Of a stretch of DNA of 64,000 bases, positions 25,574 to 31,422 are shown one piece after another; position 1 is the stretch's first letter; each line of letters starts with the position of its first letter. Source of the DNA: Gaiellales bacterium (GTDB lineage Bacteria > Actinomycetota > Thermoleophilia > BMS3ABIN01); the NCBI GenBank assembly GCA_003599855.1, contig QZKG01000022.1, forward strand, positions 29,927 through 93,926, written 5' to 3'. The position numbers and the translations under genes are program-made. The notes beneath the pieces were generated by a model, which was given only the letters and a program-made list of their open reading frames with translations, did no database searches and had not been told where the DNA came from.

Positions 25574-25648
25574 TGGCGAGTGGCCTAATGGTAAGGCACC
25601 TGACTCTGGATCAGGGGATTGAAGGTTCGAGTCCTTCCTCGCCAGCCA
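25574..25648 (+). tRNA. tRNA-Gln (anticodon CUG), CCA encoded
   Basis: UGGCGAG acceptor; D-arm GCC-UAAUGGUAA-GGC; anticodon stem CCUGA/UCAGG with loop CUCUGGA; T-arm GAAGG-UUCGAGU-CCUUC; CUCGCCA-G-CCA. Matches the bacterial tRNA-Gln pattern (GGUAAGGCACC). Confidence 0.95.
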
Positions 25649-25690
25649 CGTTGCCCTCCTATCCGAATCTTCGATGAGCGCCCCTTGCTG

Positions 25691-26770
25691 TCATCCTGAG
25701 TCCGAACACCCCTTATTGTCATCCTCGATCAGGTTGAGGATAAGGCCGATCATCAGCTCCTTCTGCCTGGCTTCGCTCTCAGCGACCAGCAGCGCCAGGG
25801 CTACCATGGCATTATCCGCCAGGCGCGGATTGCCATCCGGCCGCAGCAGCAAGCTGTTCCGCCGCAGGTACTCCAAAAAAAGCAGCGTACCGATGCGCTT
25901 GTTGCCGTCGACAAAAGGATGATCCTTGATAACGAGGTAAAGCAGATTTGCTGCTCGCGCCTGCACCGTGGGATAGAGCAACTCGCCACCGGAAGTCTGC
26001 TCGATGGCACCCAGAATAGCACTGAGATGCTCACCGCGCTCCTGACCGAATATGCCCGTTGCCTCACCTCGCGAAGAAAGCGCAGCCCTGAGTTATTCAA
26101 TGGCAACCCGCGCTTCGATTAACGTAAGCTCCGCTGTTGGCTGAACCGGCCGTGCCGGCGCTTCGGCCAACCGGTCCTCGTCATATTGGAGTAGCAGTTT
26201 CCAGGCACGCGTATATTGCTCTACGATTTCCAGAATCGCTCGCCCTTCATCCGCAACCAGTTCATTGCGGGAAAGCGTTCGGGAGAGCAGCGCTACAGCC
26301 TGCTCTATTTCGCTGAACCCCTTTGCACTGATCCGCTTCTCGTTGATCGTGAAACCGCGCAGCAGATGATCGCGCAGGGTCCTGGTCGCCCAGATACGGA
26401 ACTGGGTGCCGCGCTTGGAATTTACACGATAACCAACAGAGAGAATGGCATCGAGGTTGAAGTGTTCGATCTCACGTACCACCTGGCGCTCACCCTCGAT
26501 TTGAACTGTTGCATTTTTTGCAACGGTTGCCTCTCGCTCCAACTCTCCCGTTCGAAAAATAGTGCCTAGGTGTCGGGATATAACAGATTTATCCCGCTCA
26601 AAAAGGTCTGATATTTGCGTCAGGGTCAGCCAGACCGTCTCCTCTTCGAGGCGAACATCAAGCTCCACCTGACCATCTGGTGATTCATAAAGGATGATTT
26701 CACCCTCGGAACCGTTCAAACCGGACCTCCGCGAAATAGCTTCCACAAGGGGTGGCAATTCCCGACGCAA
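25691..26770 (-). pseudogene. RhuM-family / Fic-Doc family protein interrupted by one in-frame TAA (26093..26095)
   Basis: N-terminal RhuM-like domain (GEIILYESPDGQVELDVRLEEETVWLTLTQ...). After the TAA the same frame continues into LRAALSSRGE...IKDHPFVDGNKRIGTLL (Fic/Doc motif HxFxDGNKR). The two track ORFs 26093..26770 and 25691..25981 are one frame. Confidence 0.7.
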
Positions 26771-26869
26771 TCAATGCTCACTGACTTTAATCGGCATTAG
26801 CGGTTTTCTCTCACGGCGAGATTATACCTGCCGGACGGTGTCATTATTTTTGGAAGCTCTTATTACCTT

Positions 26870-27125
26870 CAGGGGAATTAGGGACAGCATACCTATTTAT
26901 CCCAATGTCGGATCACGCTTCGCTGATCCGACCTACAGCTGTGCTGTCCTGCATACAAATAAGGGCAAAATAAGGGGACAAAATAAGGGGACACCATACT
27001 TATTTATCCAATCGTTTCAATGAATCAGTATGGTGTCCCCTTGTTTCGATCCATACCTATTTATCCAATCGTTTCAATGAATTAGGTAAGGTATCCCCTT
27101 ATTTCCGTGTCCCCTTATTTCCCGC
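26870..27125. repeat. Palindrome-rich MITE/PATE-like repeat cluster inserted into the IS3 orfB
   Basis: Hairpin GTCGGATCA-N7-CTGATCCGAC. 13-bp inverted repeat GGGGACACCATAC...GTATGGTGTCCCC flanking 35 nt. Direct repeats CATACYTATTTATCCAATCGTTTCAATGAAT (x2 plus a partial). ATAAGGGGACA x2 and its inverse x2. Confidence 0.55.
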
Positions 27126-28089: not shown

Positions 28090-31000
28090 CTATGGCAGCT
28101 GTCCCGGGAACCAGTACTCTCTTTGAGCATCATCCTTGCAGCTTGCGTACGATATCGTCGTGAAGTTACTGATGTTTGAAGGTACATAGTATTTGAGCAT
28201 GATCGTCTCGCTTGCGCCCGGCATGAGGTTGCCTGTTGTTAGCGGCAGAGGCGTCACCACGTTTACGGACGAAGGCGTGCAGAACGATGCGTGGACTGTG
28301 GGTTCGAATGCCTCTCCGGTGCCGGTATTCTTCATCGAGTAGTCGATGGAAAGTCTCCGGTTATAGTAGTCGTCCCAGCTGGCCCAGTAGACTCGCTTTT
28401 TTGTCCAGTTGAGAGAGGGAATGGTGGTAGCCACCTCAGCTACGTTGGATAGTTCCGATCGACGCAGGACTTCATCCTCGGCTTTCAGGGCAAAGTAATA
28501 CATCGTTCCCGCCTTGAGGCCGGTTATTGTTACTGTCTCGGGGGAGCCTGCCGGCTGGGGCAGCGGGATGATCTCGACAAGCTCGGCTTCCTTCCAGTTC
28601 ATCTCTGTGATGGGAGTTTCAGAATACCGTACGTCATAGTACTGGGCGCTGCCGGCGTTGCCATCGTCTCCTGGAGCCGTGAATGATATCGTGACGGTAT
28701 CGGATGAGGCACTGACGAGTGACAGGTCGCTGACCGCCGCCGGCGGATTCAGGTCGATATCATGATGGGCGATGCTGTCTGGTGGGCGTAGCTCATCGAC
28801 AACGCCGTCGCCCTCGCTGTCGACCTGAAGTTGATAGTCAGCGTTCCGCGCCAGTTCCAGATGGACTCTCGTCGATGCGTTCACCGGTACAGCCACATAG
28901 TTGACGGTATCCGCCGAGTTTGTGGTTTTGTCCGGTGAGCCGACCGTAAAATCGAAGGTGCCTTCGCCGGTGCCTTCAAGTTCGAAACGATAACCGGCAG
29001 AAGCGTCGCCGCCGTGGATGATGATGGTCTTGCGGTGCAGTTCGGGTATCTCAATATATTCAGCGCCTGGGATCTGCTCGTCGAGGCTCCCGGCTTCATT
29101 TATCCCCACGTGGTTGCCGGCTGAATCGTAGAGGTGGATATCCACCGGAGAAGCGACGCTGCCGTAAGTATCGCTTGCGGACACTCCGGCACACTGCGGG
29201 TCGCCATTGTTACAAAGCCCGTCGGACCAGGAGAAGGGATCGTCCCACCTGCCGCTGTGCTCTGGTGCGGCTGCGGGGCCTTGGGGAGCATCCAGCCAAG
29301 GTACACCCACTATCTCTCCCCACGCACCCTGATACGCAAGCCACCCATAAGGTCCGCCAACCAGGCTGCCGACACGCGCTGAGCCCACATCGGGAAGGAC
29401 TTCGACCTGTGGTTCAAGAGGCCCATTAGCAGTTTTTTCAGTCGTGTCGTTTGGGTCAAAAGGAAAATCATCAACTGGAACCGTGTGCACACCAGCAATG
29501 AAATATGTCGCATGTGATCCTTTTGCGATATATACGATAGGATGATCGCCCCGTTTTTCAACATATGACCAATCACCTTTAATGCCGCCAAGGTGCTGGC
29601 TAAGAGAGACGCTCTCTGGCGACAATTCACCCAGACCTTCGAGGTCAACCTGGACCATCTCCCAGTCACCTTCGTGAAAGTTGCCGAAATTAGTGAAGAA
29701 CCCGAAAGTATTGAAGTAGTAGAGCATCCAATACTGAAGGGCAACCCTGTCGCCCGTCGAGTTGCGTGTGACTCTGGCGTAATAGAGCTCGGGATAGTTA
29801 TATTGAGACAGCAAATTATTGTATGGATTTACGAAATGATACTTCAAAGTCCACTCTGTCCATCGAGCATCTATCCATGAAGACCTGACATTCCCCGGCA
29901 AATCGATGTACTTCCCTCCATCTGGATTACCTGGTTCATCACTCGCACCGAAATAGTTGCCGAGTGATCCAAGAGATAATTCGGGCCACACCAACAGGGT
30001 ATTATCAGGCCAGTTGTCTATGCGCTCCATCAGTTTCGCTCCCTCCCCATCGACGAACATGCCTACCGGCCGCGGCTGAAAGTACTCCTCGTGGTGCAGA
30101 TACAAGTAGGGCGCATACCTCTCCGCCAGTTCCTGCGCCCTGTCACCAAGGCGGTTGTGATAGAGGTTGCGCACCCCGTCCCGGTCGTCGCTCCAGACTA
30201 TGTGCGTCCCGGAGACGACGGGATTGATGGCCAGCACCGGGCTCCTTGACACCTGCTGGGTCTCACCCGTAGCGAGGTCGTGGAGGTAGACCTGTGGTGG
30301 GGCGCCGCGGGGGTTGGCTGCATCCCAGACGACCTTGTCGTGCGAGTCGGTGTCGATGTCGAGGCTCTCTCCTTCCATGCTGCTGATCAGCTGAGGTTGT
30401 GCCGCAGGTTCGTTCAGGTCGAGGACGTAGACCCCCACGTCGGGGTCGCCCAGCGAGCCTTTTCGGAAGGCGAGGGTATCGCCGGCCAGGGAGTAGCTGT
30501 CAGCAGCACCGACGACGCGTTCGGCGCTGCCGTCCAGTTTTCTGGCTTTCAGTTCCGTCTGGCCGGAAGACGAGTCCTTCCAGGTGACCCAGGAGCCGGA
30601 GATGTCCGGTTCGTACTGCTTGTCGGGCAGAGCCGCTACCGGCTGGGCGCCGGCTCCGGGGTTGTCCAGATCATAGAGGTAGATGTCGGGGTTGGTGGAT
30701 GAGTACCGCTCGTTCTGGAAGGCTATCTTGTGGCCGCTTAAGGCGATCTCCCAGGGGTTGAAGCCGCTCAAGGGTATGGCATTGTCCAGGCAACCGGTCT
30801 CAGGGCAGCCGTTACCGAGGAATGTGTAGTGGATCTGTCTGGTCGTGCCGCTCTGTTCGAGCCAGACGACGAGGTCGCCGTCGATCAGGGGGCTCGACTG
30901 GGTGATATTGCTGGCCAACTAGGGAACCGGCAGGTAAGTCGGATTGGCCGGATCGGAGATATCCCTGAAGACGATGCGGTAACGGGCGCTGCCATTATAG

Positions 31001-31276
31001 TCGAAGCGTCCCACCCAGACAGCCCTGTCGCCGCTTATCGCCGGCGACTGCTGGGATTCGGGATCAGGGGCGACCGCGGAGTCGGCACCGAAGACCCACT
31101 GGTCGCCGGGGGCGGCTTTTGCATTAGGGGTGAAGGCCAGCGGAACTAACAGAAGGAAAAACTGAATCAGTATGGTCAGCGCGGCCCGATGGACCCCCCC
31201 CCGTTACGGAAAGTCCGCCAAGCGCCACAGAAATAGAGGCTCTTGTAACGGAAGCAGCAGTAGCGACATTAACCAT
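28090..31276 (-). pseudogene. Large secreted multidomain protein (~1,060 aa if repaired). Layout: signal peptide, PD40/TolB-like beta-propeller repeats, central domain with NFHEGDWEMVQVDL motif, FN3-like domain, C-terminal beta-rich domain. Disrupted by a poly-G(9) frameshift and an in-frame TAG (30919..30921).
   Basis: Leader ORF from ATG 31276 is -1 relative to the body. The body frame encodes ...ALTILIQFFLLLVPLAFTPNAKA/APGDQ... then P.ISGD..VW repeats. TAG sits in a linker between repeat units with the frame conserved. Track ORF 28090..30918 is the post-TAG part. Confidence 0.6.
31194..31202 (-). repeat. Homopolymeric G9 (C9 on plus strand) tract at the 5' end of the large secreted protein gene. 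Candidate slipped-strand phase-variation site, or a homopolymer sequencing error.
   Basis: 9 consecutive C at 31194..31202. An 8-G or 11-G tract would fuse the ATG-31276 leader to the signal-peptide frame. Confidence 0.6.
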
Positions 31277-31345
31277 GCTCCCCACCCTTTCGCAGCGATT
31301 AATAACCATGGGGGTGAGCCTACCTCTCACGCCGACTTGTCGAGA

Positions 31346-31374
31346 ATCTATCAACTTGCGGTTACTGATGTCAA
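31346..31374 (-). promoter_or_regulatory. Putative sigma70 promoter for the large secreted protein gene (TTGACA-17-ATAGAT)
   Basis: Minus-strand TTGACA at 31374..31369 and ATAGAT at 31351..31346. Confidence 0.4.
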
Positions 31375-31422
31375 CGTTTATTTGTAACAAAATCAGAATG
31401 GCGTTAGGCATGACGTATAAAT

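Follow-up and report, generated by a model that had tools for sequence, protein, structure and literature searches.

A lineage-specific insertion between pfkA and cca of a Gaiellales bacterium, containing glnS, tRNA-Gln(CUG) and decayed accessory DNA

In a 64-kb stretch of DNA from a Gaiellales bacterium (Actinomycetota, Thermoleophilia; contig QZKG01000022.1, positions 29,927 to 93,926, hereafter the window), a tRNA-Gln(CUG) gene starts 75 nt after the end of glnS, the gene for glutaminyl-tRNA synthetase (GlnRS), and is followed by a run of low-GC genes that are visibly damaged. The original prediction regarded this run as an old, eroding genomic island that had been integrated at the tRNA 3' end. 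The question raised by the locus is whether the tRNA gene was indeed the target of an island, or whether the tRNA gene itself arrived at this site. Here, we compared the site with that of relatives, and found that glnS and the tRNA gene are part of the additional DNA. Probably, the locus was built by stepwise accretion of foreign DNA (the cargo) beside an acquired glnS-tRNA-Gln module, with deletions and inactivating point lesions coming later.

Relatives were obtained by a pfkA protein search (matches of 86-88% identity), and their contigs were then read. Three loci were compared at the site, namely Logan SRR28285651 (L167), JGI 3300037540 (L168), and GCA_054606915.1 (L169), a metagenome-assembled genome (MAG) of Thermoleophilia. 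In all three, pfkA lies beside a gene that we call cca, which encodes an A-adding tRNA nucleotidyltransferase in which DHH/CBS domains are fused with a PolyA_pol-type nucleotidyltransferase. The amino acid identities of pfkA between the window and L167, L168, and L169 were 87%, 86%, and 69%, and the spacers between pfkA and cca in these contigs were 197, 269, and 24 nt, respectively. A DHH/CBS/PolyA_pol gene of 891 aa directly follows pfkA in L167 and L168, and cca, 84% identical to that of L167 and 71% identical to that of L169 at the amino acid level, directly follows pfkA in L169 as well. The contigs of L167 and L168 keep the gene order of the window, with recG-rsmD-coaD-yceD-rpmF-pfkA on one side and cca-M50 protease-ThiI-YkuD on the other, and the nucleotide identity along these collinear parts is 74-83%, for the most part 78-82%. 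In blastn, positions 20172-23506 of the window matched 6552-3225 of L167 and positions 31483-33194 matched 3027-1327, so that the two blocks are 7,976 nt apart in the window as against 197 nt in L167. When the spacers were aligned, the pfkA terminator and the promoter box of cca (GGCAGGTATAATCTTTA, ~23670-23690) were found to be kept at the two edges of the insertion. The tRNA, glnS, and the cargo genes were all absent from the site in the three relatives (0/3). The arrangement considered in the original prediction, in which glnS and tRNA-Gln are followed by pfkA in related genomes, was thus not the one found; instead, cca comes immediately after pfkA, and the site has neither glnS nor tRNA-Gln.

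The pairwise identities of pfkA were 86-90% among the window, L167, and L168, and 68-70% between these and L169, which served as the outgroup. As the same order of pfkA and cca is present in L169 and in L167/L168, the adjacency of the two genes is ancestral and, judged from gene order, the extra DNA inserted between them in the window is derived. The opposite polarity, in which the block or the glnS-tRNA-Gln pair was present in the ancestor and has been lost by deletion on the way to L167, L168, and L169, draws on the fact that the outgroup is a single locus. We consider it very improbable, because the pfkA clades would imply two or more clean deletions with a spacer of 24-270 nt left by each, and because GlnRS is rare in Actinobacteria, where it was found in 1 of 17 sampled genomes and where such lone cases have been ascribed to transfer (PMC3927822). 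Other anchors were less useful. The 80 best genome loci for glnS (at most 81% amino acid identity) share no neighbour with the window and could not be used as an empty site, and the best match to pfkA in JGI metagenome contigs was 64% identical with no common neighbours. Exact-protein look-ups with the pfkA and the large secreted protein of the window returned no record of either.

Since the relatives lack glnS and tRNA-Gln at the site, the insertion amounts to ~7.7 kb and includes the tRNA. Therefore, the tRNA is not demonstrably an ancestral target of integration at this site. In the proposed course of events, the present Gaiellales lineage would have gained this DNA in layers, within the short stretch that separates the terminator of pfkA from the promoter of cca. 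The first layer (~23700-25648), comprising glnS and tRNA-Gln(CUG), has a host-like composition and would have been the earlier arrival or have had a donor whose GC content was similar, and the second layer (25649-~31413) is a low-GC mosaic of 5.8 kb set against the 3' flank of the tRNA, whose three unrelated pieces would have come in through two or more additional events.

The distinction between the two layers was made by composition. The tRNA genes were called using ARAGORN and Rfam, protein domains using Pfam and NCBIfam, and defence genes using PADLOC, and a set of 28 native genes served as the reference for GC content at third codon positions (GC3). Only one tRNA, tRNA-Gln(CUG), is present in the whole window (Rfam score 69.9 bits), and its position downstream of a complete glnS, together with the order and identities of the cargo genes, agrees with the original prediction, as do the lower GC content after the tRNA and the lesions in the cargo (an in-frame TAA in a RhuM-Fic/DOC gene, a truncated IS3 element, and a TAG with a frameshift at a run of nine G's in the gene of the large protein). 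In 500-nt windows, the GC content was 0.44-0.63 across 25.5-31.5 kb and 0.65-0.70 on either flank; it drops directly after tRNA-Gln and recovers only at ~31.5 kb. This is the single deep trough of the window, where the median is 0.646 and all 1-kb windows with a GC content below 0.56 are confined to 25751-30500. While the GC3 of the native genes was 0.83 ± 0.06 and those of glnS and pfkA were 0.90 and 0.95, respectively, that of the cargo was 0.59 for the RhuM-Fic gene, 0.66-0.68 for the IS3 remnant, 0.45 for a small membrane gene, and 0.66 for the large protein. Relative to the native genes, the cargo has z-scores of -2.5 to -6.5 for GC3 and of -3.0 to -8.2 for the codon score, so that the deviation in codon usage looked for is also present. 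The shift in composition and codon usage begins at 25649, 1 nt past the CCA end of tRNA-Gln, and the minus strand carries all cargo genes. In composition the low-GC genes are foreign, and they have been inactivated.

The coincidence of this shift, and of the end of the homology of the glnS-tRNA module, with the tRNA CCA is what would be expected if a single integrative element had entered the 3' end of a resident tRNA-Gln by site-specific recombination and had later lost its integrase and attachment (att) repeats. The cargo is also foreign and absent from relatives, and accessory genes follow a glnS-linked tRNA-Gln at another locus (L003, see below). However, none of the three relatives has the tRNA at the site, which leaves the ancestral spacer with no resident target. 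Among the open reading frames (ORFs) of at least 60 aa in 25.6-31.5 kb, all of which were accounted for, no tyrosine or serine recombinase was found, and there is no space for an integrase because the annotated genes and repeats occupy the entire low-GC segment. Likewise, a repeat of the tRNA 3' end was not found in the whole window using a 25-mer and a 17-mer with up to three mismatches, together with a k-mer check; both absences had already been pointed out in the original prediction. Two candidates for the right attachment site, an 11-mer at 30571-30581 and a 14/16 match at 31055-31070, fall within a conserved part of the gene for the large protein and were dismissed as chance matches. The three fragments of the cargo are moreover unrelated and differ in their natural contexts, and the first cargo gene, which is proximal to the tRNA, is a broken piece of a restriction-modification (R-M) operon that faces the tRNA and whose junction lies ~60 nt beyond it. 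An island directed at the tRNA is thus an unlikely explanation. What stands of the proposed integration site is the start of the cargo at the end of the tRNA; that the tRNA served as the target does not fit with its lying within the insertion and with the lack of an integrase and att repeats.

The proposed stepwise accretion must also be compared with a one-step import, in which the whole 7.7 kb came as a ready-made mosaic, either by recombination with a relative in which it had been assembled or through a mobile element that can no longer be recognised. It needs only two outer junctions, both of which lie in one spacer with the terminator and the promoter intact, and the intermediate state was not found in any collection searched. 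On the other hand, the GC3 of glnS (0.90) differs from that of the cargo (0.45-0.68), which indicates different residence times or donors. The outer junctions have no terminal or target-site repeats, a single 7-mer at chance level being all that was detected, and the closest glnS-tRNA modules (L001, L002, L003, and L008) carry none of the cargo of the window. We therefore assign a low probability to the import in one step. Another concern is that the source is a MAG, in which a low-GC stretch from another organism may have been joined at a conserved tRNA gene. Transfer RNA genes are known points of chimeric joining, and the composition here changes exactly at the tRNA end. For such an artefact, two false joins would be needed, the second of which would have landed precisely back at the pfkA terminator in the same spacer, and the relatives of the large protein belong to the class of the host. 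A misassembly thus seems highly unlikely.

In the case of the first layer, the nucleotide identity of the glnS-tRNA-Gln module to L001, L002, and L003 was ~79%; this homology begins at 23783/23828 and stops precisely at 25648, where the tRNA ends with its CCA. Linkage of glnS to tRNA-Gln(CUG) was found in four of the eight closest glnS loci (L001, L002, L003, and L008, at about 10000-11880 in each) and in none of 68 more distant loci. In the window and the four linked loci, the tRNA lies 60-100 nt downstream of glnS. The linked loci share no further gene with the window. Considering the host-like composition, the end of homology at the CCA, the restricted linkage, and the rarity of GlnRS in the phylum, glnS and tRNA-Gln seem to be a compact module gained at this site, which would either have preceded the cargo or have had a compositionally similar donor. 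As with horizontally acquired bacterial GlnRS genes, the glnS of the window is found in a phylum that seldom has it, and the nearest relatives lack it at this site, but in the window and in four of the closest glnS loci it is paired with tRNA-Gln(CUG), with homology ending at the CCA. The true start of glnS may be some tens of nucleotides downstream of 23742.

The flank beyond the tRNA was also inspected at the linked loci. In L003, the glnS-linked tRNA-Gln is immediately followed (12227-16527) by a gene for a 216-aa protein, a RES-domain toxin gene, and an IS21-like transposase gene (rve and Mu-transpos_C_2). In L002, 8.8 kb of metabolic genes of native GC content (11876-20703) lie between the tRNA-Gln and a tRNA-Glu, and in L001 a tRNA-Glu 95% identical to that of L002 is only 81 nt away from the tRNA-Gln (11822-11904). 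L002 has an additional, inverted tRNA-Gln(CUG) at 20795-20865. The start of the cargo at the tRNA end, together with the accessory DNA in the same position in L003 and L002, fits with addition at the tRNA 3' flank. We also considered, tentatively, that the ~1.9-kb glnS-tRNA-Gln(CUG) pair is a self-contained, horizontally mobile cassette for direct glutaminylation in Thermoleophilia-like Actinomycetota, which would have entered the pfkA-cca spacer, and whose tRNA flank would then collect defence and accessory DNA, as it appears to have done after the cassette in L003 and L002. In this view, the cassette would extend from just ahead of glnS, where homology between genomes begins, to the CCA of the tRNA. 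This is possible but doubtful at present. A tblastx comparison among the glnS loci was noisy in high-GC DNA and gave hints of a common upstream context in L001-L003, and for this reason movement of a cassette between those genomes is not claimed. The possibly mobile glnS-tRNA-Gln pair may nevertheless be a more interesting lead than the decayed cargo.

The second layer consists of three pieces, whose natural contexts are different from one another. The piece next to the tRNA is a RhuM-Fic/DOC gene, which matches the PADLOC candidate PDC-S23 over its full length and has a Doc-type motif, HPFVDGNKR, that is intact. Its probable start is a TTG at 26719 preceded by GGAGG. An in-frame TAA at 26093-26095 splits what is a single RhuM and Fic/DOC gene; its homologues, of which there are more than 8000 at 67-78% identity, each consist of one ORF of 333-345 aa, and E, G, H, R, or T is found in them at this variable alignment column. 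In all three contexts that were read (L164, L165, and L166), the intact homologue is inside a type I R-M operon, with its stop overlapping the start of hsdR downstream, and RhuM genes embedded within type I R-M loci have been described (PMC9881135). In contrast, tblastn gave no match for HsdR, HsdS, or HsdM in the 64-kb window. The C-terminus of the encoded protein is altered and 5 aa longer than those of the homologues where hsdR should begin, and an HsdR N-terminus was looked for downstream of the gene and was not found. From the R-M context elsewhere and the lack of hsd genes here, the gene is an orphaned operon fragment; it resembles the operons with an embedded PDC-S23 gene in identity and motif, and differs from them in the missing hsdM, hsdS, and hsdR, the TAA, and the changed C-terminus. 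As such, a gene normally located before hsdR would have been stranded at this site and would have acquired a nonsense codon.

The second piece is the remnant of an IS3-family insertion sequence, which comprises orfA with its helix-turn-helix (HTH) region and about 80 codons of orfB. It covers positions 3-53 and 80-159 of the 369 positions of the NCBIfam model transpos_IS3, matches HTH families of Pfam, and matches annotated IS3 transposases in tblastn. As in other members of the family, orfA and the start of orfB are in the typical -1 arrangement and the candidate left repeat begins with TG, whereas neither the rve (DDE) domain, which is the catalytic domain, nor the right end was found in the remnant, so that it is not transposable. 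No partner for the candidate left inverted repeat is present in the window. The homology of orfB ends where a cluster of hairpins and repeats begins, and the DNA left before the RhuM-Fic gene is too short for the rest of orfB; therefore, the element is truncated and not merely interrupted. In the proposed course of events, this would be a piece whose end within orfB coincides with the start of the repeats.

The repeat cluster, which adjoins the point of truncation, contains a hairpin with a 20-bp stem and nested 13-nt repeats, and folds far better than shuffled sequence (z = -8.0). The original prediction compared it to a miniature inverted-repeat transposable element. This label was not confirmed, as a second copy was found neither in the 64-kb window nor in the 169 loci fetched. 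Clear element ends or a target-site duplication could not be defined. Matches of the hairpin to miRNA families in Rfam were far below the gathering scores, and the tRNA is the only match in Rfam.

The third piece, at the distal end of the block, encodes a large secreted protein and a small membrane protein. The large protein has a signal peptide, beta-propeller repeats, a Vps62-like region, an FN3 domain, and a C-terminal domain. The Vps62-like region was just under the Pfam threshold here and is on record for homologues, and a search against solved structures gave a match of the FN3 type only. These domains give no firm function. NCBI lists a 942-aa protein (P0001, C4534_02955, from a Gaiellales MAG), 100% identical to the corresponding part of the window, which begins just after an in-frame TAG at 30919-30921. 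The homology to P0002, P0003, and P0004 crosses this TAG unbroken, with Arg in P0002 at the position, and extends to the hydrophobic core of the signal peptide. Further upstream, a run of nine G's (31194-31202) separates the frame of the N-terminus and start codon from that of the signal-peptide core, and eight G's would restore a single frame; the N-terminus in the upstream frame, ASISVALGGLS, resembles KSISGALKNGLS in P0002. Recoding of the stops, such as by pyrrolysine, was dismissed since the stops of the RhuM-Fic gene and of the large protein are different codons at variable or Arg positions and the flanking genes use normal stops.

The large protein has homologues of 1019-1065 aa, which are 48-57% identical and come mostly from Thermoleophilia MAGs. 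Immediately after these homologues, we found ORFs that annotations had not called (L161, 13245-13520; L162, 12498-12773; L163, 7317-7598), whose products are 33-38% identical to the 106-aa membrane protein (E = 2e-16). The pair is located beside hemC in L161/L162 and between priA and metK in L163, and its GC3 is below that of its neighbours there as well. As the pair is conserved at different loci, the large and the small gene constitute a two-gene module, whose small partner was missed by annotations. This module, known from other Thermoleophilia loci, would have been added here and then broken by the nonsense codon and the homopolymer frameshift.

The spacer between the tRNA and the RhuM-Fic gene contains a repeat of the cca leader. 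The motif CTGTCATCCTGAG(C/T)C is present in three copies in the window, a number that was reached in none of 100 shuffles. A tandem 32-nt pair in the leader of cca (23565-23629) accounts for two of them, and L167 has one diverged copy in the same place. The third copy of the window, in the same orientation, lies 40 nt past tRNA-Gln and before the R-M fragment. It may be a native repeat after the tRNA that was cut by the incoming DNA, or it may be a trace of the insertion event. The motif was found in 1 of 169 loci, which does not support a widespread family of repetitive extragenic palindromic (REP) sequences.

Several observations weigh against the stepwise account. A genome with glnS-tRNA-Gln at this site and without the cargo was not found, and therefore the two-step order is drawn from composition alone. 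The three junctions, namely the two edges of the insertion and the tRNA end, have no att-like or target-site repeat. Homology to type I R-M operons ends at ~25707-25712, so that the R-M fragment stops ~60 nt past the tRNA, unlike in a fresh tRNA-targeted integration. Because most of the proteins homologous to the large one belong to Thermoleophilia, this piece may be derived from a close relative and not from a distant donor. Finally, as the source is a MAG, the three point lesions and the joins are known from the assembly alone. The derived state of the insertion, the foreign composition of the cargo, the lesions, and the different natural contexts of the three pieces are established, and we infer the order of events and the tRNA 3' flank as the landing place. 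With no junction repeat above chance and no surviving recombinase, the mechanism of entry is not recoverable from the sequence.

Taken together with these points, stepwise accretion beside the acquired module remains the probable history of the locus. The notion of an eroding island was right in that the cargo is foreign, inactivated, and absent from three relatives, and was not in that the cargo is a mosaic of three unrelated fragments. The locus resembles tRNA-associated genomic islands in its position at a tRNA 3' end, its atypical GC content and codon usage, its absence in relatives, its accessory and defence genes, and its insertion-sequence debris. It differs from them in the lack of an integrase and of att direct repeats, in the location of the tRNA within the inserted block, and in being a patchwork of three broken fragments of only 5.8 kb. 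With no integrase, intact transposase, att repeats, or terminal repeats, the block is now immobile, and it is an ordinary patch of decayed accessory DNA of a well-known kind, not an active mobile island. Functional genes in it today are likely to be limited to glnS, the tRNA, and possibly the small membrane gene. As a genomic islet the locus is routine, and it documents gain and decay of genes in a poorly sampled order of actinobacteria. The gain of a synthetase together with its cognate tRNA, at a site that can be polarised by an outgroup, provides a concrete case for the spread of the direct Gln-tRNA pathway. For annotation, C4534_02955 and the split RhuM and Fic calls should be treated as fragments of pseudogenes. 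More generally, an island next to a tRNA is not to be equated with an island integrated into that tRNA unless the empty site has been compared. The coordinates of the features are listed in Table 1.

Table 1. Features of the pfkA-cca region, in window coordinates
Feature	Position	Strand	Description
cca, left syntenic anchor	20825-23506	-	893 aa, DHH/CBS/PolyA_pol; NCBIfam NF041569, E = 6e-172
cca leader and promoter	23507-23695	-	conserved with relatives; tandem 32-nt repeat at 23565-23629 and GGCAGGTATAATCTTTA box (alignment, TRF, motif search)
Lineage-specific insertion, ~7.7 kb	~23700-31413	.	not present between pfkA and cca in L167, L168, and L169; edges about ±15 nt
glnS, glutaminyl-tRNA synthetase	23742-25499	+	Pfam tRNA-synt_1c and both anticodon-binding domains; GC3 0.90, native-like
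tRNA-Gln(CUG), CCA encoded	25574-25648	+	right end of the glnS-tRNA-Gln module; ARAGORN, Rfam
Junction spacer	25649-25712	.	third copy of the cca-leader motif CTGTCATCCTGAGTC at 25688-25702
RhuM-Fic/DOC pseudogene, PADLOC candidate PDC-S23	25691-26719	-	PF13310 and PF02661; PDC-S23 E = 3e-123, full-length
Hairpin/tandem-repeat cluster	26881-27122	.	13-nt unit AAATAAGGGGACA, three forward and three reverse copies; 57-nt unit, 1.9 copies
IS3-family remnant	27125-27721	-	orfA 27366-27623; orfB N-terminal fragment 27125-27451; candidate left inverted repeat 27701-27721
Small membrane protein	27733-28053	-	106 aa, GC 0.40, GC3 0.45; conserved downstream partner of the large protein
Secreted multidomain protein pseudogene	28090-31276	-	~1,040 aa if repaired; candidate starts ATG 31276 or GTG 31228
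Promoter-like site, TTGACA-18-TAGATT with upstream TG	31345-31374	-	ahead of the large protein; consensus match only
pfkA intrinsic terminator hairpin	31424-31446	-	kept in L167 and L168; right edge of native DNA
pfkA, right syntenic anchor	31486-32538	-	Pfam PFK; GC3 0.95

Outside the insertion, the window has ~400 nt more than L167 at 33195-33710 (1218-1326 in L167), where an ORF for a 117-aa membrane protein (33232-33585, minus strand) with a native GC3 of 0.81 is flanked by rpmF and a small zinc-ribbon gene. Upstream of ribD (42678-43952), there is an FMN riboswitch (113.7 bits; 43901-44020, minus strand). A very large, internally repetitive ORF of more than 2079 aa occupies 3-6239 on the minus strand and runs past the start of the window, and L169 has a repetitive homologue of it at the corresponding end (1-4211).

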